Source of the DNA: an uncultured Ignavibacteriales bacterium | GTDB taxonomy: Bacteria; Zixibacteria; MSB-5A5; GN15; FEB-12 | Direction: 5' to 3' | NCBI GenBank assembly: GCA_964464605.1 | Contig: CAYXJN010000001.1 | Location: forward strand, 131,068-195,067 | DNA length: 64,000 bases | Shown: piece by piece, positions 4,034 to 14,148 of the stretch | Position numbering within the stretch: the first letter of the stretch is position 1 | Layout: the number at the start of each line of letters is the position of its first letter | Notes under the pieces: generated by a model | The model's database searches: none | The model's input: only the letters and a program-made list of their open reading frames with translations | Told to the model about the DNA's origin: nothing | Translations under genes and position numbers: made by a program

Positions 4034-4927
4034 ATGCGCGTACTTATTACTGGTTCATCCGGCCTGCTGGGCACAGCCTTACAGAATCTCCTTATCGAAC
4101 GGAGTCATATTGTCGCGCGTTTAGTGCGCGCCAAAAGCAGCGATACAGGCAATCTGTATTGGGATCCGGAAGCCGGTGTGCTGGATGCCGCGCAGTTGGA
4201 AGGGTTCGATGCGATCGTGCATTTGGCCGGGCACACACCGGGCGCCGGGCGAATGACCGCAAAGAAAAAAGGAAAGATTTTCCATAGCCGTATCGACAGC
4301 ACCCGTTTGCTGTGTGAAAAGATACTGACATTGCAGCATCCACCTAAAGTTTTTGTTTGTGCCTCAGGAATCGGTTACTACGGCAACCGTCCCGGCGAGT
4401 TATTGACTGAAACGAGCAGTTCCGGTTCTGATTTTCTTGCCGAGGTTTGTCAGCAATGGGAGGCGGAAACACAAAAACTAGCGAAACGACCCGAAATCCG
4501 AATCGTAAATATGCGAATTGGGTTTGTGCTTTCTCCAAAAGGAGGTGGACTGGCGAAGATGCTCCCTGCATTCAAACTCGGTATCGCCGGAAAGCTGGGA
4601 AACGGGAAACAGTATATGAGCTGGATTTCGCTTGAAGATACCGCCCGCGCGATGCTGCATATTTTATCGACCAATTCGCTCAGCGGGCCGGTTAACATCG
4701 TCGCACCGCACCCGGTAACCAATGAAGAATTCACGAAAACTTTGGGGAACGTAATCCATCGCCCGACTGTTATTCCTGTTCCCGCATTCCTGCTGCGGTT
4801 GCTGTTTGGTGAAGGCGCAGATATGTTAGTGTTGTGCAGTCAGGAAGTAAAACCGGCAAAATTGCAGCAATCCGGATTTGTTTTTTCCCATCCGAATCTC
4901 CCTGCCGCGCTTAAAGCTGTCCTATAA
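4034..4927 (+). CDS. TIGR01777/YfcH-family NAD-dependent epimerase-like oxidoreductase
   Basis: ITGSSGLLG Rossmann motif, ASGIGYYG, GNGKQYMSWI, GPVN..AP.PVTNEEF. Confidence 0.9.
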   Translation: MRVLITGSSGLLGTALQNLLIERSHIVARLVRAKSSDTGNLYWDPEAGVLDAAQLEGFDAIVHLAGHTPGAGRMTAKKKGKIFHSRIDSTRLLCEKILTLQHPPKVFVCASGIGYYGNRPGELLTETSSSGSDFLAEVCQQWEAETQKLAKRPEIRIVNMRIGFVLSPKGGGLAKMLPAFKLGIAGKLGNGKQYMSWISLEDTARAMLHILSTNSLSGPVNIVAPHPVTNEEFTKTLGNVIHRPTVIPVPAFLLRLLFGEGADMLVLCSQEVKPAKLQQSGFVFSHPNLPAALKAVL

Positions 4928-4936
4928 GTAGTGACG

Positions 4937-6142
4937 CTACCTTCTTTTTTTAATTGGGCTTTCTTTCAGTAAAAGCAAAAGCAGAAACGGTAGAAGAAGT
5001 ATGAAATACTTCTCCCAATGGAGATAGGAAAATGGCATTACAAGTAAAAAGCAAACCAGCGATAGAATAAGAAGCATATCGACGCCATTCGCTTTTTCTT
5101 TCCGCAGTTTCCAAAATAATGCTAAAAAGTGTACGAAAACGACTAAGCCGATAAGAAAGCAGAAGTAAAAAATACCATTAATAACTAATGGATTATCGAA
5201 CACGTAACGAAGTAAGCGATGAAACAGACCAACCGTTTCGATATCGACATTTGCGGCGGCCTGCGATGCCCGTATCGGCGCGAGCAAATAAATCGACGAC
5301 ATGAGAATTGCAATAAGCCATACGGTTTTATTCAGAAATACATTTTTTCTTCGAACCAGCAACACCGGAAACAGATAGATGGTAATACAACTGAGATACA
5401 ACACCGCTGATGACAGATGATAACTTAGTGCTGTATCTAAATAGAGTGTTCGCATCGTATTATCAGGCACTATCCCCTGCCAGTAGGCAAAAAGAAATGT
5501 TAACGGCAGACAGGACAGAATAACTACTAAGAGTGTGCGCAAACTCGCGGGACGTTTTGCCCAGATATATTCAAGAATATAAAACAGCATCAATGCAGCG
5601 ATAAAGAAAACCGAATACTGCCGACTCAGCAGCGCAATCACACAGCCGATTCCAAGCCACCACTCATTTCGTTTGATTCCCTCCCACAATGCTAACAATA
5701 ATCCAATAATGGCAAACAGATCGGTGTAGACATACATGGTAAACCCGATCAAATACGGTTGAAAAAGAAATAACAGATACGCAAAAAAAATAGTGCGTGA
5801 TTGAACGAGTAATTGCTTTGCAATTGCAAAAAATAATAATGCGGCTGCAAATCCGAGTAATAACGAAAACAAACGCAGCGTCGCTGCTTCCAGACCAAAC
5901 AGTTTTCCCCACAACGCATAGAGTACAAACGGCAACGGCGTGGACATTTCATTGTAGGTACGAAGCGTTTCGCGGGAATAGTTTTGCGCAAACTGCGTGA
6001 TAGTCGCGATAAAATGTCCCTCATCCCCGTAAATCGGGCGATTCAATCCTGAAAACAGAATTATTCCGCTATGCAAAATCACGAAAATGCTTATCGCAAT
6101 AACCCAGGGATACCGCTCTACCCAATGTGAAAATCTAATCAT
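4937..6142 (-). CDS. Polytopic membrane glycosyltransferase, GT-C fold
   Basis: About 11 TM segments; GDE motif in the first loop, YTD and RQ motifs typical of lipid-linked-sugar GT-C enzymes. Confidence 0.65.
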   Translation of the reverse strand: MIRFSHWVERYPWVIAISIFVILHSGIILFSGLNRPIYGDEGHFIATITQFAQNYSRETLRTYNEMSTPLPFVLYALWGKLFGLEAATLRLFSLLLGFAAALLFFAIAKQLLVQSRTIFFAYLLFLFQPYLIGFTMYVYTDLFAIIGLLLALWEGIKRNEWWLGIGCVIALLSRQYSVFFIAALMLFYILEYIWAKRPASLRTLLVVILSCLPLTFLFAYWQGIVPDNTMRTLYLDTALSYHLSSAVLYLSCITIYLFPVLLVRRKNVFLNKTVWLIAILMSSIYLLAPIRASQAAANVDIETVGLFHRLLRYVFDNPLVINGIFYFCFLIGLVVFVHFLALFWKLRKEKANGVDMLLILSLVCFLLVMPFSYLHWEKYFILLLPFLLLLLLKESPIKKRR

Positions 6143-6187
6143 GTGTGAAAAGTAACAGTTGTTTGTTTGGAAAAGGAGATAATGTTA

Positions 6188-8068
6188 TCAGGCGAAAATC
6201 AGCAGACGACAGTTAGCCGGTAAACGGCGCACAAGTCCTTTGAGTACATGACCGCGGAAAATATGGTACAACCGGCTGCGCTGCCCGGCTCCGACCATCA
6301 CGGTATCAACTTTCAACACTCCCGCCGCACGGGCAATCCCTTCGGCCGCATCGTACGAAACAGTCCACACAGGAATCGCGATAAAATTCAATCGGGTCGC
6401 TTCTGCAACGGCGAATCGGAGCGCATCCAGTCCGTTATCATACGGACGATCCGCTTCATCACCGACAAACAATCCGGGTCGCTCTTCAACGAACACAACA
6501 TAAATCGCATTGCCGCCCAAACCCTTTTCCCGCGCGATGGCTTCATCGATCAAACGAGGATTTTTGCCGAGTGTTGCAACCATCGTATGCGATGAATACA
6601 ACGGCAATAATGCTTCAGCACTGCGAAGGGAAACTAATTCATCGAATTCTTCGGACGCTCGATCAAGCTTTGAAATAGTACGCTGCGCGTGGCGCGCCAT
6701 GAACGGAATCTTGAAAAACTGCTCCCGATACCAGCCGGATTTGTGCGGCAGCGCAATTCCCATCCCCAAAAGCACAATCGCTCCGCCAAAATAGGTCGCC
6801 AGATGTTTGGTCACCAAGTTTACCGACCATGCTACCAAAAGAACGGCAGTGGTTAGCACGCCGATCCAGAATACCCAGTCCCGTTTTTTCTCCCGCCAAC
6901 GGATAACATCCAGCCCGAGCGATGACAACACAAACGCACCCAACAATCCGAATGCGTACATCTCGCCCAACAGCACCAGATCACCATGCACGAAATAGAT
7001 AACGATAATCGGCACAACTGTCGCCAGAATGATGGCGTAATGCGGCGTACCAAACACCTGGTTGCGCTCGGTCAATTTGCCGGGGAAAAACCCACCTTTT
7101 GAAAGGGCGAGAAAGACATGGTAGCCGCCAATAGTCGCGGTGTTGGCGGCAAATAATAACAGCGATGAGGCAGAAAGCACGACCGCGAGTTTTATCGGAA
7201 ATCCCCCCATCATAAACCCGAGTTCAGAAATAAACCGCTCCGCATCAGCCGATTTTGTCGCTTCAGGTAATAGCGCAATACTGAATAACGTAAGAAATGG
7301 CGAGGTTAGCACCATCGTAACGATAACATACCACATCCCGCGCGATGCGGTTTTGCGGATCGGCTGTTTCATGGCAGGACTTAACTGACTGATACTCTCA
7401 AGCCCGGAGAATGCCAGCCATGCTCCGGCAAAGCCGACCAAAACAGTCGATAGCGGAAGTTCGGCGTCAAAACGAACATGATTCCAAAGCTGCGCGATGG
7501 CATCCGCATCCAGATGCATATACGTCATACCGATAACGACAAGATTAACGCCAAACGAAGCGACCGCCATTATCAATGAAACATAGGCGCTTTCCCGAAT
7601 ACCGATAATGTTGATAATGGCAAGGAAGATCAAAAACAGCATCGCCACCAAAACAAGGTTCTGCTCGATTGAAACGAAGATACTTCCCAAATAGTGAATA
7701 CCGGATACGGTCGAAATCGCAGATGTCAAAAAGTAATCGACAATAATCAGCATGCCGCCGAGCGCACCCCAATTGGGCGTGAAGGCTTTGGTGGTAACAC
7801 TGACCACGCCCCCTCCTTCCGGATTACGCCAGCAGATTTCGACATATTTGGAGGCTAACAGAATAAATCCGATAGTGGTCGCAAAGACCATCAACGGCGT
7901 CAGATTTCCGATTTGGTGATACAGAATCCCCGGTACGTAATAAATCGAAGTGCCGATATCACAGAATACGACAGCCCACACCAACAGCGGCCATAGCTGA
8001 CCGGGCGGTGCGTCTTTTCCTCCCCGCTCCTGTTCGGCCTCGATTCCTTCGGGTACCGGTTCGCTCAT
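6188..8068 (-). CDS. APC/KUP-superfamily (KimA-like) putative K+/H+ symporter with C-terminal USP-like domain
   Basis: TM1 VVFCDIGTSIYY resembles the KUP motif GDIGTSPLY; IVDYFLTSAIS and FSGLESISQ match KimA acidic motifs; about 12 TMs; C-terminus AAEGIARAA...DTVMVG...RGHVLKGL is USP-like. Confidence 0.8.
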   Translation of the reverse strand: MSEPVPEGIEAEQERGGKDAPPGQLWPLLVWAVVFCDIGTSIYYVPGILYHQIGNLTPLMVFATTIGFILLASKYVEICWRNPEGGGVVSVTTKAFTPNWGALGGMLIIVDYFLTSAISTVSGIHYLGSIFVSIEQNLVLVAMLFLIFLAIINIIGIRESAYVSLIMAVASFGVNLVVIGMTYMHLDADAIAQLWNHVRFDAELPLSTVLVGFAGAWLAFSGLESISQLSPAMKQPIRKTASRGMWYVIVTMVLTSPFLTLFSIALLPEATKSADAERFISELGFMMGGFPIKLAVVLSASSLLLFAANTATIGGYHVFLALSKGGFFPGKLTERNQVFGTPHYAIILATVVPIIVIYFVHGDLVLLGEMYAFGLLGAFVLSSLGLDVIRWREKKRDWVFWIGVLTTAVLLVAWSVNLVTKHLATYFGGAIVLLGMGIALPHKSGWYREQFFKIPFMARHAQRTISKLDRASEEFDELVSLRSAEALLPLYSSHTMVATLGKNPRLIDEAIAREKGLGGNAIYVVFVEERPGLFVGDEADRPYDNGLDALRFAVAEATRLNFIAIPVWTVSYDAAEGIARAAGVLKVDTVMVGAGQRSRLYHIFRGHVLKGLVRRLPANCRLLIFA

Positions 8069-8073
8069 GGATA

Positions 8074-8769
8074 TTAGGGATTAATTAATGTAGGAAGTCC
8101 GGGTTCTGATGCGCGAAACAGTGTAATCGCTGCATCCGGGGCTATTTTTACTTCCAGTCGTTTCAAACCAAACGGAATTTTGAGCATCTGCCCAAGTTCG
8201 ACCAGCGTATTTTTCAAACTCGATTCCGGCTGCGCGGAAACATCGGTAACACAATCCAAAACAAATCCACCTTCCCACGTGAGCTGAAAGCGGGCTGGGA
8301 CAATGCGCTGGAGTAATTCCGGGCTTACTTTGGATGCTTCCGAAACGATTTTCAAAATGGAATCAGGCGTCTGCTTTTTTCCGGCGAACAGATGCTTGTC
8401 TTCAAGCGTTCGGACGACGCCGTTGCCGTCATCAAAAAAGCTTTCTCCAAAATCACGAATCGACGAAGTATCATTGTTTTCGGATTTGAGTGGATAGCTC
8501 CAAACCGGCACCGCCTTCAGGCGAAGCTCAAGTTCCATCTTTTTGAGATTGATAACCAGATACGCTTTTTCCGTGGCCGCAAGTTTAAGTTCTGCACGAA
8601 TGATTTGATAGCTTTGCTCGGCCTGCGCGGAATCCCAGGGCGTGGTTTGGGCCGTCGGTTTCGATTTTTGATTGGTATTTGTTTTGGCAGGTTTCTTGGT
8701 TTGCGCGAACGCAGCAGTCGAAAACCCGGCAAGAAACAGCAAGAGCAATAACGATATCGTACGTTTCAT
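8074..8769 (-). CDS. Secreted L,D-transpeptidase-like protein apparently lacking catalytic His/Cys
   Basis: Signal peptide ending AAFA; YLVINLKKMELELRL N-terminal strands and C-terminal DAAITLFRASEPGLPTLI resemble the YkuD fold; no HG...GC motif. Confidence 0.55.
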   Translation of the reverse strand: MKRTISLLLLLFLAGFSTAAFAQTKKPAKTNTNQKSKPTAQTTPWDSAQAEQSYQIIRAELKLAATEKAYLVINLKKMELELRLKAVPVWSYPLKSENNDTSSIRDFGESFFDDGNGVVRTLEDKHLFAGKKQTPDSILKIVSEASKVSPELLQRIVPARFQLTWEGGFVLDCVTDVSAQPESSLKNTLVELGQMLKIPFGLKRLEVKIAPDAAITLFRASEPGLPTLINP

Positions 8770-8773
8770 AGCA

Positions 8774-9439
8774 TTACAGAATGTATACGTATTCCCCTAT
8801 GCGAACCCGCGTGTATAACTTTTTCAAATCTTCCGATCCGACACGAACGCACCCATGCGTAACATTCACACCCAACAAACGTTCGTAAATAGTGCCATGA
8901 ATGAAATATCCGTCATCGCCGAACCCAATCGCGTAGTCACCCATCACGTGCGGGTCGAGCCGTTCGCTTGGGTCTTTCGGAATCTCCTCGCCATCTTCAA
9001 TAAACGCCCAGTCCGGTTTACGCCACCACGGTTCATTTAATTTTGTTTTGATCTTAAATACGCCGCGCGGTGTGTTGAAAATCCATTTTTGTCCGGTGGC
9101 GGAATCAACTAATTCACCGCCCGACCCGGTCGATGCACCAGCTTCCAGTAAAACCGAATCCTGGGTACGGAGAATGACTTTGTTGCGGTGGCAATCCACG
9201 ACAACATACTGCTCCTTTGGCATCAGTTTAGTCAGCTCTTTTTTCGCCTTGGTCAAAAGAGCCTGAGCCTCTTTTTGACCGGCCGGAAGGTGCTCCGGTA
9301 AAGTGATAGCCGGAACTTTTGCCGTTGGTCCTTCTGCGTCCACAGCTACCTGCTGCGGTTCGGAACCGGAAAAGAAATAGACAGCCGCCACCGTGAGCAC
9401 CACGAAAGCGCTGATAATAATAACCGTCATTCGTTTCAT
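8774..9439 (-). CDS. L,D-transpeptidase (YkuD; ErfK/YbiS-like), N-terminal membrane anchor
   Basis: TPRGVFKI, PWWRKPDW, catalytic IHGT...THGCVRV. Confidence 0.92.
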   Translation of the reverse strand: MKRMTVIIISAFVVLTVAAVYFFSGSEPQQVAVDAEGPTAKVPAITLPEHLPAGQKEAQALLTKAKKELTKLMPKEQYVVVDCHRNKVILRTQDSVLLEAGASTGSGGELVDSATGQKWIFNTPRGVFKIKTKLNEPWWRKPDWAFIEDGEEIPKDPSERLDPHVMGDYAIGFGDDGYFIHGTIYERLLGVNVTHGCVRVGSEDLKKLYTRVRIGEYVYIL

Positions 9440-10512
9440 GGCCAGCGATCCGACTTTCTGACAATAGTGACCGGTGTTCCTACACTGGTAAATCGCATCA
9501 AATGATCCATATCCGCATTCGAAAGCGCAACACAGCCGAGCGTCCAGTCTTCATTTTTCCCGCCGTGGCCGTGGATTTCAATCAGTCCGCCGATACGGGC
9601 AGACTTGGAAATCATACCTTTATCCTTCTCTCTTTTAAACCGAATTTTATCTTCTTCGTTCGGATAATTTAAGAGCAAGGCCTTGTAATACATACTACCG
9701 GTCGGCCGGTATTTGCTAACATAATATTTCCCCTCCGGCGTTGCGCCGTCACCGGATAAAGTCTTTTGCTGTGACGGATTAAAACCCAAATCACAGTCAT
9801 ATGAGCGTATAATATTTCCATCTTTAAGTAAATAGGTCTTCCGGTCGGATTTCACGACAATAACGGCGTATCCGTTACTCCGACTCGACTGCTCAACTGT
9901 TTCCCGAACCAGCCGTCGCCAGGTACCGATAAGGTTGGCCTCTTCCGCGGCGAAATTCGATACAAGAATACCGACGCGGTGGAGTGCATGTTTTCCTTTT
10001 TCCAGTTCTTCGATAGCATCTTCATATTCCCCGGCTTTTTCAAGCTGCTCAGAAGTACTGATAGCAAAGCGGGTGGAAGAAAGATATTTAGCAGCGCGGT
10101 TTTGCACTAATGAGCCACCGACTGAACTCTGCCATTCGGTCAGATCGGTGACTAACGCGGTCCGTTCATTGAACGCAGTAGTACGCAGGTAGTCGATACT
10201 GTCGGTTGCTTTTTTCCCGGCTTGTTTGGCGAGTTCGGTTGCGTAAAGTAAGAGTGAGTCTGCTTTGTCATAATCACGCAAAACGGCGAAACGTCCGTTT
10301 TGGCTGGCGATTTCCATCCAGCCGATCTGCACCAAAGATTCAGCGTATTTGTACTTGGGGGCAGCATACCGACGGGCACCTGCTTTGGCGGCATCCTGAA
10401 GCGCTTTTTTTGCTAGCTCCAGCCTGCTGACCGGTGCGTCCTGGCAGCCAGCTATCGCCAGGGCAACGATAGACACCAGAAGGACTCCTATAACGACAAA
10501 ACGGGCTTTCAT
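9436..10512 (-). CDS. Lipoprotein with N-terminal helical (DUF4398-like) region and C-terminal YafK/DpaA-type L,D-transpeptidase-fold domain
   Basis: Start moved to ATG 10512 (MKARFVVIG..LAIAGC lipobox); GDGATPEGKY, YYKALLLNYPN, GGLIEIHG...WTLGCVAL catalytic motif. Confidence 0.88.
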   Translation of the reverse strand: MKARFVVIGVLLVSIVALAIAGCQDAPVSRLELAKKALQDAAKAGARRYAAPKYKYAESLVQIGWMEIASQNGRFAVLRDYDKADSLLLYATELAKQAGKKATDSIDYLRTTAFNERTALVTDLTEWQSSVGGSLVQNRAAKYLSSTRFAISTSEQLEKAGEYEDAIEELEKGKHALHRVGILVSNFAAEEANLIGTWRRLVRETVEQSSRSNGYAVIVVKSDRKTYLLKDGNIIRSYDCDLGFNPSQQKTLSGDGATPEGKYYVSKYRPTGSMYYKALLLNYPNEEDKIRFKREKDKGMISKSARIGGLIEIHGHGGKNEDWTLGCVALSNADMDHLMRFTSVGTPVTIVRKSDRWP

Positions 10513-10528
10513 GGGTGACCTATGAGTA

Positions 10529-10555
10529 GTATCGGTTATACAATAAATCGACTTA
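10529..10555 (-). promoter_or_regulatory. Possible internal sigma-28-like promoter (TAAGT-N14-ACCGATAC)
   Basis: Same spacing as the three better sites; -35 imperfect; overlaps the terminator U-tract. Confidence 0.35.
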
Positions 10556-10589
10556 AAAAAACATGGGGACGCCAAACGGCATCCCCATG
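10555..10589 (-). terminator. Intrinsic terminator after the helical lipoprotein gene
   Basis: Minus strand CATGGGGATGCC-GTTT-GGCGTCCCCATG (12-bp stem, one G-U) followed by a 7-T run. Confidence 0.85.
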
Positions 10590-10618
10590 CGTGAATTCAA
10601 GCTCTACAAAAGGCTGTT

Positions 10619-11212
10619 TTATCGACCAGCTTTTTTCATTGCAGCGTTGGCGATTTCCTGAGTAATCGCGTTGGAACGGTCAACAACCTGCTGTGCCTTG
10701 GTCCGGGCGGACAGGTACTTGCCGGCGTTGAAGTCATTGTTGGCATCGGTCATCATAGCGTTTACGCCATCCAAGTCACTCTTGATCAGGTCAAGATCAG
10801 CCTTATTGCCTTTGCCGCGCGGGGCTTTGGAAAGCGCATCAGAGGCAGCCGTCCAGGCAGTCTGGGCGGTGGTCAACAGGGTCATGACTTCATTCTTGAC
10901 GCGTTCTTTTTCGGCTTCGGCCTGGGTCGCTACATCTTTGGCGATGGCTTCGGCGCGGACGAACATGTTCTTGGTGTCGGTATACGAACGGAACAGAGCA
11001 AACTTCTCATCCTGTTCTTTCTTGGCAGCCATAGCAGCATTCAGGGTATCCTGAACCATCTGCCATGCATCCGGAACATACATTTCGGCTTCAGCGCCGC
11101 GAGCATGCTCAATAGCAGCGTTGGCAGCCTGCATTTCGGCTTCTGGCGGTTTCGAGCACCCTACCAACGCCAAAAGCGCAAATACGGTGATTAGGAGTGA
11201 TATGCGTTTCAT
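10619..11212 (-). CDS. Ala/Lys-rich all-helical lipoprotein (DUF4398-like repeats)
   Basis: Start moved to ATG 11212 (RBS GAAAGGA); MKRISLL...LALVGC lipobox; repeated A..AI..A..A.A..Y helical units; C-terminus AAMKKAGR. Confidence 0.8.
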   Translation of the reverse strand: MKRISLLITVFALLALVGCSKPPEAEMQAANAAIEHARGAEAEMYVPDAWQMVQDTLNAAMAAKKEQDEKFALFRSYTDTKNMFVRAEAIAKDVATQAEAEKERVKNEVMTLLTTAQTAWTAASDALSKAPRGKGNKADLDLIKSDLDGVNAMMTDANNDFNAGKYLSARTKAQQVVDRSNAITQEIANAAMKKAGR

Positions 11213-11404
11213 ACCGTCCACATTCCTTTCTTTCCTGCATGGTTGCAGGCATTCGTTTCGCAAAGGGTTCGCGCTTGCACGCGAAGGCCTTCACACTTGT
11301 TTTGTTGTGAATTTGATCTTTTCAATTCTCTTAAGTCTTCCCTCGTAGTCACGCGGTAAATATTACACGAGTTCAATGCGTACCCTACGAAAAAAACAGC
11401 GCGA

Positions 11405-11433
11405 ACATTATCGATTTTTAAGGCGTTTGTAAA
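11405..11433 (-). promoter_or_regulatory. Candidate sigma-70 promoter for the lipoprotein-LDT operon (TTTACA-N17-TAATGT)
   Basis: Near-consensus -35, 17-nt spacer and TANNNT -10, about 190 nt upstream of ATG 11212. Confidence 0.4.
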
Positions 11434-11721
11434 TACATTTTTTCACAAATTTTAGCTGGTTCCCCTTTGCAAAGAGCCAAAAAAGCGACAGGAAAAGCAC
11501 ACTCGGCAGGGTGTGTTTGATGCTCTTTATTATAATGTCGTTCAACAGATTACGGCGATTCTTCGTATCGTGTTTGATCGAATAAAATCCTGATAGCTAC
11601 ACACCTGCGGTTAAAGCATTGGTTGAAAGATTGCCTCTTTCTTCCAAATTCGTGGCTTTGGGAAAGCAGTAAAAAAGCAGGCAAAAACGGCTTGGTGGCT
11701 CGTGAAAAAGAGAAAAAGCGG

Positions 11722-12990
11722 CTATTTGACGGTTGGCAAAAGGGCGCTGTCTAAGAGCTGGGCTTCGACCAGTTGTTCTATCACACTATTGAGTGTGTCG
11801 ACGACATACACCTGTTGAGCATCCGTGAGTGAGTGATACAACGGCAGAGCTAACGACAATTTGTCAGCCAAGTAACAGTTCGGTAAATCAAACGGTTGAT
11901 ATCCGTAGGTCTCCCGATAATACGAAAGGGTGTGAACGGCATGGGTGCCTTGACGGGTCGATATTCCTGCTGCTTCTAAATCAGCCATCAGACGGGTGCG
12001 CAGTTTACCGAGTTGATCGATACATTTTTTATCTTCCGCTAAGTCAGCAAGTTCATACCCGCCGGTAAAGGTGCAGACATACGCCTGCCATCCATGAGCG
12101 TATCCCTGTGGTTCTTTCGGAAGTACAAACGAAGGATGCCCCCCTAATAGCTGATTGTACCGTTTTGCTCTCTTTTCACGGGCGGATAAGATAGTGTCCA
12201 GTTTTTCCATTTGAGCAATACCGACTGCTCCCTGCAAATCAGTCATGCGATAGTTGTATCCGACCTCCGGAAAATCCGGCATGAGATAGGGCTGGTCATT
12301 CAGATGTCCTTTGCGCATCGCGCCATGATCCCGCAGGCGACGGAGATGGTCGGCGATTGCGTTATCATTCGTAACAATCATCCCCCCTTCACCGGTCGTG
12401 ATAACTTTACGCGGATGAAAACTAAAACAGGCAACGCCTGCTTCCGTACCGGCTTTATGTCCCTTACGGGTTCCACCCAATCCGCAGGCGGCATCTTCGA
12501 TAATAGTGCAGTTATACTTTTCAGCGAGTTTTTGAATCTCCGGCATCGGTACGCAGAGACCGAATAAAGAAACCGGAACGATCGTTTTGATTCGCTTACC
12601 CTGTACCGTGCGTTCACGCAAACAGGTTTCAAGCGCGTTTACATCAAGATTGAAAGTGGTCGGATCAATATCGATAAAGACCGGACGGGCGCCGATATAC
12701 TCCACCGCATTCGCCGTCGCAATAAAGGTAAATGATGGGAGAATAACCTCATCCCCCGGTTCCACACCAGCAGCAAGCAACGCCAAATGAAGGGCCGTGG
12801 TGCATGAAGTGGTCGCAATCGCATGCTTAACGCCCAGCCATTCGGCAAAGCGTCGCTCGAACTCGGCGACCTGTTTTCCCTGCGCCAGCCATCCGGATCG
12901 CAGGACCTGTAAAACCAGTTCCTCTTCATGCGCGTCGATAGCGACCCGTGTGATCGGGATTTTGGGTACCGTGTGATCTTTGTTTCGCAT
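11722..12990 (-). CDS. DegT/DnrJ/EryC1/StrS PLP-dependent sugar aminotransferase
   Basis: [42 protein letters not shown] (PLP Lys), GYNYRM; start may be TTG 13008 or ATG 12990. Confidence 0.93.
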
Positions 12991-13017
12991 TCTGCTCTCG
13001 TGTTTCAAACAGAATCA

Positions 13018-13044
13018 GTATCGGCATCGCATGCTGTTTCTTTA
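13018..13044 (-). promoter_or_regulatory. Sigma-28 (FliA/WhiG)-type promoter for the aminotransferase
   Basis: TAAAG-N14-GCCGATAC, close to the established TAAA-N15-GCCGATAA consensus. Confidence 0.7.
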
Positions 13045-13058
13045 CTAAACAAACGTGC

Positions 13059-13085
13059 TCAAGTTTTACGCAGTTCGGCCGATAG
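13059..13085 (+). promoter_or_regulatory. Sigma-28-type promoter for the epimerase/dehydratase
   Basis: TCAAG-N14-GCCGATAG, 7 nt before ATG 13093. Confidence 0.7.
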
Positions 13086-13092
13086 AAGGGGC

Positions 13093-14148
13093 ATGACAAC
13101 ACCAAATGCGAAACCAGAGCGGAAACCGGCGGTAATCAGCCCAATTTCCGGAAAACAGATTTTCATTACCGGCGGCGCCGGGTTTATCGGTTCGACGCTG
13201 ATCGGCCAGTTAATCGAAAACAACTATATCACTGTCTATGATAACCTACACCGTAACGCGCTTTCCAACTGCCCATATGCAAAACATCGGAATCTCCAGA
13301 TTATCAAAGGGGATATTTTAGATTATCCGCATCTTGCGAAATCGATGATGGGTTCGCAGATCGTCGTTCACTGTGCCGCTATCGCCGGGATCGATACGGT
13401 TATCAAACGTCCGACTGAAACGATGCGGGTCAATATGATCGGCACGGCCAAAGTGCTGGAAGCGGCCCTGCATATGGGTACGCTGGAACGCTTAGTTGAT
13501 TTTTCGACCAGTGAAGTATTCGGCCAATCGGCTTTTCGCAGTGAAGAAACCGCAATTACGCATATTGGCGCAGTCGGGGAAGCCCGCTGGACATACGCCG
13601 TCAGCAAATTAGCCGGTGAGCATTTAACCAAGGCGTATCATCAGGAATTCAATTTACCGACTGTTTCCGTTCGTCCGTTCAATGTGTACGGTCCCGGCCA
13701 GGTCGGTGAAGGCGCCTTAAGCACATTCATCAAACGGGCGCTGGTAAATGATGAGATACAGATTCACGGGGACGGTAATCAGATTCGTGCCTGGTGTTAT
13801 GTCGATGATTTCGTGCAGGGGCTCATGCTCGCCATGACGCATCCGAATGCTATCGGCGAGTCATTTAACATCGGCAACGCCCGCGCCGTGATTACGATTT
13901 ACGGTTTGGCGCAGACCGTTGTTCGCGTACTTAACTCAAAATCAAAAATCCGTTTTGTCGATGCGCTCAGCGCGGACGTCGAACTGCGCGTCCCGTCGAT
14001 TGAGAAAGCGAAACGTCTTTTTGGTTTTGAAGCGAAGATCGATCTGGATGAAGGGATTCGTCGTACCGCCGAAGCGTTTGCACGGCAGATGCAAACAACG
14101 TCGGCCGAAGCGGAGTCTCATGCGTTTGATCTGGTCTCAGTGTCATAG
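13093..14148 (+). CDS. NAD-dependent nucleotide-sugar epimerase/dehydratase (extended SDR)
   Basis: [22 protein letters not shown] catalytic Yxxx[10 protein letters not shown]; start moved to ATG 13093. Confidence 0.92.

Follow-up and report, generated by a model that had tools for sequence, protein, structure and literature searches.

A 64,000-nucleotide stretch of DNA from an uncultured bacterium of the phylum Zixibacteria (contig CAYXJN010000001.1; hereafter the window) contains four consecutive genes that appear to constitute a system for tying a membrane to the cell wall. We call them g1 to g4. They encode a lipoprotein of the DUF4398 family (g1), a second lipoprotein in which a g1-like helical stalk carries a YkuD-type hydrolase domain (g2), a canonical L,D-transpeptidase (g3), and a secreted pseudo-L,D-transpeptidase with a YkuD fold (g4). 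We give about even chances to the reading that these four genes form a cassette for the covalent attachment and detachment of a lipoprotein tether, analogous to the Lpp system of Escherichia coli and assembled from different parts. To our knowledge, Lpp is the one covalent tie between membrane and wall that is known in detail, and a few recent proteobacterial cases add to it.

All four genes lie on the minus strand. The first, g1 (10619-11212; 197 amino acids (aa), lipobox cysteine Cys19), is followed by a hairpin resembling an intrinsic terminator (10551-10590, minus strand; 13-bp stem with 8 GC pairs, then T7), which is situated ~30 nt past the g1 stop and ~40 nt ahead of the g2 ATG. The g2 gene (9436-10512, counted from this ATG; the longest open reading frame (ORF) starts at 10575) encodes a lipoprotein with lipobox cysteine Cys23, and its stop overlaps the start of g3 (8774-9439) in an ATGA at 9436-9439. 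The gap between g3 and g4 (8074-8769) is 4 nt, and 5 nt further on begins a potassium transporter gene, g5. The original prediction, an earlier reading of this DNA from its letters, had described these five co-directional genes as a turgor-linked tethering operon. Its layout, overlap and gaps included, is correct in every detail, and so are its family assignments (DUF4398 for g1, via its homologs; DpaA-type YkuD for g2; YkuD for g3; inactive for g4; KimA-like for g5). Given the strong terminator-like hairpin between g1 and g2, g1 probably constitutes a separate transcription unit or one subject to attenuation. A hairpin and T-run comparable to those of the window were found 3' of g1 in 16 of 68 related loci according to a strict rule of our own, and an Rfam search (E<=1) of positions 4800-11800 detected no riboswitch, its sole match being a sub-threshold L20_leader on the terminator hairpin itself. 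The entire five-gene stretch is present on a single contig in a strain 99.2% identical recovered from an independent metagenome. Since 32 of the 38 coding differences listed between the two are synonymous (the other 6 being conservative non-synonymous changes), all five genes are under purifying selection.

The conserved unit comprises four genes, g1 to g4, and not five. The g4 protein was found in 11 of 40 relatives, and the order g1-g2-g3-g4 was the same in all 10 loci fetched from them; in the eleventh (G030) it is the same by coordinates. A broader scan, based on the g3 alignment with one genome per species, returned 122 relatives, from which 80 public loci were kept: g4 follows g3 in all 80, g2 precedes g3 in 76, and g1 is present in 69, the contig ending first in the cases where g1 or g2 is missing. 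No other flanking gene is conserved in these loci, the largest flank cluster reaching 13 of 78. Within the phylum, g4 occurs in 112 of 285 genomes (80 of the 198 high-quality ones), spread over 52 of 130 genera, and strong g4 matches also exist in 5 of 151 sampled genomes of another phylum, reached via loci labelled Krumholzibacteriota and Fibrobacteraceae. The window's genome, which is 100% complete, has exactly two YkuD domains, those of g2 and g3. This association extends to the 41 relatives that we compared: YkuD domains occur in 13, of which 12 are exactly the g4 carriers; the cassette pair represents the sole YkuD genes in 11 of these 12; and 27 of 28 genomes devoid of the cassette are also devoid of YkuD. 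Two unrelated YkuD matches occur in G040. Strong members of the g1 family are likewise found in 13 of the 41 genomes, the same 12 and one more, G038, to which we return below. The record titles of the related loci mostly name Zixibacteria, and some disagree with the grouping of the genomes: L035, L037, L050, L058 and L078 are titled Acidoferrum, Deferrimicrobium or Ignavibacteriales, and their contigs group in the window's own family together with Zixibacteria-labelled genomes. The submitted taxonomic labels are unreliable.

The putative tether, g1, has the lipobox LVGC and an alanine content of 19.8%, and terminates in ...MKKAGR. Its own match to DUF4398 (PF14346) amounts to 18.2 bits, under the cut-off of 27.9, and its membership is established through its homologs, many of which carry PF14346 and the NCBI DUF4398 name at 50-60% identity, together with the homologous g2 stalk, which fits the crystal structure of a DUF4398 protein. 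At E<=1e-3 the family numbers 364 proteins, whose names are 'hypothetical' or 'DUF4398 domain-containing'; the ESM Atlas matches of g1 are restricted to 'hypothetical' or DUF4398 clusters. The g1 profile retrieved nothing significant from the PDB, the best match being the signal-peptide region of Lpp20 (E 0.009). Of 69 homologs, 65 have the lipobox. A loop specific to g1, KAPxGKGxK, is an insertion relative to g2, and its residues A130, P131 and K134 are invariant in 61 sequences. The original prediction had pointed to C-terminal lysines as the likely attachment residues. Lysine is indeed enriched there, with at least one among the last six residues in 65 of the 69 homologs and one at the very end in 46 (Arg in 8, Met in 11), compared with a genome background of 43% and 14.9%, respectively (2461 ORFs of at least 150 aa), but the terminal residue is not conserved. 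Judged from these sequences, the enrichment is real without being decisive. In three dimensions, g1 is probably rod-shaped, one three-helix bundle being stacked on another, with the lipid anchor at one end and, at the tip distal to it, the KAPxGKGxK loop and the basic C-terminal tail lying close together in the predicted arrangement. K134 and the tail lysines are all chemically possible attachment residues, since known substrates of L,D-transpeptidases are described as using a C-terminal (Lpp, OutB), penultimate (Lpg1810) or internal (LimB) lysine (PMC12274547, PMC12729407), and many substitutions in the Lpp box are reported to be tolerated (PMC12274547). The g1 family also includes a Met-ending subfamily (11 of the 69), ten members of which, from loci L023, L024, L027-L030, L043, L046, L048 and L096, have Cys-containing endings (...ICKAYEAKGKKCM or ...KCPMGM) in place of the usual tail, reminiscent of the redox-active -RICK tail described for Salmonella LppB. 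One protein has a longer, fused form of g1, joined to thioredoxin-like domains.

The second lipoprotein, g2, combines a copy of this architecture with an enzyme. Its residues 12-193 are homologous to residues 8-193 of g1 (hhalign 99.1%, E 7.6e-19), that is, to all of g1, which bears out and extends the earlier observation that the helical region of g2 resembles g1. The AlphaFold model (predicted local distance difference test (pLDDT) 88.5) contains helices at 28-43, 51-72, 82-131, 137-159 and 163-212, which form a two-bundle helical stalk (~24-212), followed by the YkuD domain (215-358; Pfam E 1e-18), which runs to the C-terminus. Residues 24-126 of the model fit the crystal structure of PA2901, a DUF4398 protein (4fm3), with Z 12.7 and a root-mean-square deviation (rmsd) of 2.1 over 94 of 95 residues, and residues ~105-190 resemble generic three-helix bundles according to VIA-align. 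The stalk is probably a rod in which two three-helix bundles are stacked and the two ends lie at opposite tips. By profile, the best PDB match of g2 is DpaA (8ikr, E 5.8e-8), followed by Csd6, Bd1075 and Pgp2, and DpaA was also first in Foldseek. We nevertheless rejected g2 as a DpaA ortholog, since it scores 19.7 bits against the DpaA/YafK equivalog NF040599, whose cut-off is 365.

The active site of g2 (K250, Y276, E312, H314, C327, A329) can be compared with the residues that discriminate these enzymes as given in PMC10653827, namely Ala145, Lys83 and Met133 of DpaA, and the Tyr133/Trp158 pair that forms the D-Ala pocket of Csd6. C327, A329 and K250 are invariant in the g2 family. A329 aligns to Ala145 of DpaA, at the position occupied by Arg in transpeptidases, and K250 aligns to Lys83, so that g2 carries the DpaA signature of catalytic Cys, Ala for Arg, Lys, and absence of an aromatic D-Ala pocket. 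In contrast, the aromatic pair of LD-carboxypeptidases is not conserved: the Tyr is kept (Y276), whereas an invariant Glu (E312) aligns to Trp158 of Csd6 and Met133 of DpaA. With Glu in place of Trp, g2 has no aromatic D-Ala pocket such as defines the LD-carboxypeptidases. By its residues, then, g2 is a hydrolase-type YkuD enzyme devoid of the carboxypeptidase hallmark, with a predicted activity.

The third protein, g3, is a clear member of the YkuD family (PF03734; E 4e-17, 63.7 bits for a cut-off of 23.4), with a hydrophobic N-terminal anchor visible by inspection and the motif His181 ... THGCVR, whose residues H181, C197 and R199 do not vary among 68 sequences. Its best relatives in the PDB are transpeptidases. 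NCBIfam matches to LdtE (31.9 bits), PRK10260 (29.6) and PRK10190 (29.1) are all far under their cut-offs and do not discriminate between the Lpp-attaching E. coli enzymes (LdtA/B/C, or ErfK/YbiS/YcfS) and the cross-linking ones (LdtD/E). At residues 137-154, g3 has a subfamily-invariant insert, PWWRKPDW, followed by the mostly conserved AFIEEGExIP; this stretch was not seen in the aligned solved transpeptidases and is specific enough to recover the cassette across genomes. Two apparent fusions were discarded as not natural: a g2-g3 ORF in L073, in which the C-terminus of g2 is scrambled in a frameshift-like manner, and a long g3 ORF in L083, which passes through masked letters.

The fourth protein, g4, has a signal peptide and matched nothing in Pfam or NCBIfam. 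Its homologs are unnamed and form a small family: at E<=1e-3, a set of 1.84 billion representatives contains 319 of them. The protein is an inactive paralog of g3, in which the YkuD fold is kept but the catalytic Cys and His are not. Its AlphaFold model (pLDDT 88.5) retrieved almost exclusively proteins of the YkuD/L,D-transpeptidase family among the top 50 rows of VIA-align (Z up to 8.2 over 102 residues, a Z of 8 being only moderate), and Foldseek matched it to the same family (E ~1e-3, probability 1.0). At the profile level, hhalign aligned it with the g3 family (91%, E 1e-6), placing KRLEVK of g4 opposite THGCVR of g3, and the conserved columns of 69 g4 sequences contain no Cys or His. The two paralogs are predicted to heterodimerise. 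On our own alignments and with a calibration that is only rough, the complex of g3 (45-221) and g4 (44-231) reached an ipSAE interface score of 0.82 in 3 of 3 runs, compared with 0.31 for the best control. Among solved complexes 116 of 157 attain this mark, and among mismatched pairs 2 of 215. Contacts agreed by at least 97% between runs, and both partners had pLDDT values of at least 85. The predicted interface involves the helices preceding both domains and the sheet edges, and uses residues 134-155 of g4, its most conserved stretch, as well as 188 and 191-193 of g3, beside the catalytic THGC.

The likeness of this ensemble to the E. coli system formed by Lpp, LdtA/B/C and DpaA/YafK lies in four elements: a lipoprotein with a basic, Lys-bearing C-terminus (g1), a canonical YkuD L,D-transpeptidase with Cys-x-Arg (g3), a YkuD hydrolase that has Ala where this Arg would be and no LD-carboxypeptidase Trp (g2), and a structural gene transcribed separately from those of the enzymes (for g1 a prediction from the terminator). 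The parts themselves are different. g1 is not homologous to Lpp and is three times longer; it scores 19 bits against the Lpp/OprI family (NF040598, PF04728; cut-off 43), and although it was the sole match of the Lpp/OprI model in the whole genome, at 22 bits and under the cut-off, the same loose threshold also yielded matches in 11 of 14 control genomes. Where Lpp is a trimeric coiled coil, g1 probably consists of two stacked three-helix bundles. Unlike in E. coli, a single cassette holds all components, the amidase-like g2 is membrane-anchored on a g1-like stalk, and the membrane-anchored transpeptidase is predicted to pair with a dead paralog. The host also differs: Lpp is stated to be restricted to four gammaproteobacterial orders (bioRxiv 10.1101/2021.05.31.446380), whereas the cassette belongs to Zixibacteria, in the FCB (Fibrobacterota-Chlorobiota-Bacteroidota) group.

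Other known systems share single features with the cassette. Coxiella LimB, Legionella Lpg1810 and Dickeya OutB are likewise unrelated, non-Lpp membrane proteins attached to peptidoglycan by L,D-transpeptidases, but they have no DUF4398 and are not encoded in an operon with a dedicated transpeptidase, a DpaA-like enzyme and a pseudo-transpeptidase. In Leptospira, LipL71 (LruA), which a table row of PMC5406399 gives as a DUF4398 and LysM lipoprotein, has the same succession of lipid anchor, DUF4398-type helical stalk and peptidoglycan-interacting module, although this module, a non-covalent LysM, is neither a YkuD enzyme nor a Lys tail; g2 has a weak NCBIfam match to the LipL71 N-terminus. The N-terminal domain of Borrelia BB0323 is perhaps similar too, with a match to 6rjw (Z 9.0, rmsd 5.5) that is below the meaningful level for helical proteins. 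In the open-access literature searched, we found no description of this cassette, nor any account of what DUF4398 does or of a pseudo-L,D-transpeptidase.

These elements can be arranged in a simple mechanism. The g3 enzyme, in heterodimer with the dead g4, would move the mDAP (meso-diaminopimelic acid) carbonyl of a tetrapeptide stem onto a lysine of g1, which we infer to be the substrate, and the resulting link between this lysine and mDAP would tie the membrane to the wall. The stalk of g2, g1-like over its full length, would hold the active site at the height of the g1 tip, and g2 would hydrolyse the bond between g1 and the wall, making the tethering reversible. With its own terminator, g1 is probably produced in larger amounts than the enzymes. 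Because the genome also encodes 7 OmpA-domain proteins, the cassette would be an accessory tether. Four points argue for this reading: the YkuD chemistry of these genomes is always accompanied by g1 and g4; g2 has no carboxypeptidase pocket; its stalk mimics g1; and in other proteins, such as LipL71, DUF4398 stalks bear modules that bind peptidoglycan. The core of the original prediction, a non-Lpp lipoprotein with an attaching L,D-transpeptidase and a DpaA-like detacher, thus fits the tests run (synteny, YkuD co-occurrence, g2 active site, Lys-rich tail), the roles of the proteins being predicted ones.

Several observations weigh against it. The covalent adduct is a candidate and not a proven product, and the task of g3, as the sole L,D-transpeptidase of the genome, could be no more than making 3-3 cross-links. 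In g1 the terminal residue is variable: the window's copy ends in Arg, 23 of the 69 homologs lack a final Lys, and 4 lack any Lys in the last six residues; moreover, a C-terminal Lys is common anyway, being found in 15-19% of the proteins of this genome and, as reported in PMC12274547, in over 20% of the periplasmic proteins of E. coli. Genome G038 (98% complete) encodes a full g1 homolog ending in KK (L106, G038:C77, 3937-4611, minus strand), with unrelated genes beside it in place of g2-g4 and no YkuD found in the genome, which speaks against g1 depending strictly on the enzymes. The geometry is also less than fixed: the rod topology of g1 is transferred from the g2 model, and although ~2/3 of 66 g2 homologs have a lipobox Cys, ~1/3 have, partly as judged by eye, an uncleaved transmembrane anchor, which would put those in the inner membrane. 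Finally, the interface score of g3 and g4 may reflect their paralogy, that is, an ancestral homodimer interface.

Part of this evidence would be accommodated by peptidoglycan remodelling without protein attachment, in which g3 makes 3-3 cross-links, g2 trims or cuts stem peptides as an LD-carboxypeptidase or endopeptidase, and the non-catalytic g1 and g4 serve as scaffolds or regulators that position or control the two enzymes. We consider this possible, though rather unlikely. It suits the absence from the genome of any canonical L,D-transpeptidase besides g3, the lack of a universal terminal Lys in g1, the retention of g1 by G038 in the absence of any YkuD gene, and the patchy distribution of the cassette in the phylum, as would be expected of an optional wall-remodelling function. 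It is also favoured by VIA-align, which places the catalytic domain of g2 nearer to the LD-carboxypeptidases (Csd6, Z 14.3; Bd1075, 14.0; Pgp2, 13.3; all with 26% identity) than to DpaA (10.5), and g2 has the Lys and Tyr of their active-site cleft. However, the Trp of their D-Ala pocket is the invariant Glu in g2, and g2 has an N-terminal stalk. LD-carboxypeptidases such as Csd6, Pgp2 and Bd1075 carry an extra C-terminal domain, whereas the YkuD domain of g2 extends to its very end. Remodelling would, in addition, leave unexplained the full-length homology of the g2 stalk to g1, the concentration of conserved lysines at the distal tip of g1, and the joint gain or loss of lipoprotein and enzymes in 12 of 13 genomes. 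A more improbable variant retains attachment and detachment but directs them at another envelope protein, for example beta-barrel outer-membrane proteins held via their N-termini as in Alphaproteobacteria and Coxiella, with g1 as no more than a periplasmic spacer or a partner of g2. Attachment of outer-membrane and other proteins by L,D-transpeptidases is described as widespread (PMC12729407, PMC12274547), the g1 tail is variable, and the genome offers many candidate substrates besides its OmpA-domain proteins; nonetheless, no partner besides g1 co-occurs with the enzymes, no other substrate candidate is conserved beside them, and the g2 stalk mimics g1 specifically.

The original prediction had gone further and included g5 (6188-8068, minus strand) in a five-gene system coupling potassium uptake, and hence turgor, to tethering. 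g5 encodes a KimA/KUP-type K+ transporter with AA_permease_2 and a weak Usp-like (universal stress protein) C-terminal domain (E 5e-4). Its sole PDB relative is Bacillus subtilis KimA, a K+/H+ symporter of the KUP family (6s3k, E 6e-18), and it keeps the K+ and H+ site residues: among those listed in PMC6994465 (D36, Y43, D117, T121, S125, T230, E233, Y377), D117, T121, S125, E233 and Y377 are identical in the HMMER alignment, as is Y118, T230 is replaced by Ser, and D36 and Y43, outside the alignment, pair with D37 and Y44 of g5 by eye only. Unlike KimA, g5 has a USP-like C-terminal domain and, in its first transmembrane helix, the sequence VFCD (residues 34-37), close to the classical KUP motif VFGD/IYGD, which KimA is stated to lack (PMC6994465); g5 may thus stand, judging by these motifs, between the Kup and KimA subfamilies. 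In favour of a coupled system, g5 does begin immediately past g4 in this species, where the junction is real, a single contig spanning it in each of three runs of different studies, and the transporter keeps the KimA residues named above. Nevertheless, the synteny proposed earlier, strict for the order g1-g4, breaks down at g5, which adjoins the cassette in 0 of 80 related loci (one has a 25%-identical permease 6 kb off). Orthologs (~60% identity) occur in 2 of 40 relatives, both unlinked (one 154 kb away, the other on a different contig), and 10 of the 12 cassette-carrying genomes in the sample have no g5 ortholog. As a conserved system the five-gene proposal is largely refuted and we hold it to be very improbable; g5 is an unrelated chance neighbour, outside the conserved cassette.

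A 401-aa polytopic membrane protein with weak PMT_2 and DIE2_ALG10 (GT-C glycosyltransferase) matches is encoded on the same strand 45 nt 3' of g5 (4937-6142, minus strand), and on the 5' side of g1 there are a DegT-type aminotransferase (11722-13008) and what looks, by eye only, like an NAD-dependent sugar epimerase (12928-14148). The cassette is surrounded by such envelope-sugar genes in this genome only. The exact stretch 6100-11700 is present in DNA runs from seven studies labelled bioreactor, activated sludge, sludge, aquaculture, wastewater and rhizosphere, so the species is widespread in engineered wet habitats.

The cassette unites three unusual features: a stalk-mounted amidase-like enzyme homologous to its own presumed substrate, a transpeptidase with a dead paralog as its predicted partner, and a DUF4398 rod as the putative tether. 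They suggest a more tentative idea, doubtful in its entirety, according to which the dead paralog g4 would dock beside the active site of g3 and shift the acceptor from mDAP to the lysines at the g1 tip, the g2 stalk would act as a ruler copied from the substrate, and the cassette would be a portable unit that originated in the FCB group independently of Lpp. If true, g4 would be the first pseudo-L,D-transpeptidase known as a specificity subunit and g2 the first substrate-mimicking ruler among peptidoglycan enzymes. The four-gene set is compact enough for heterologous expression, and the earlier reading is corrected in that the potassium transporter stands outside the system. If the tether reading holds, reversible covalent tethering of membrane to wall would have arisen more than once, the pairing of enzyme and pseudo-enzyme would enter L,D-transpeptidase biology, and a function would be available both for DUF4398 and for the unannotated g4 family of ~300 proteins.

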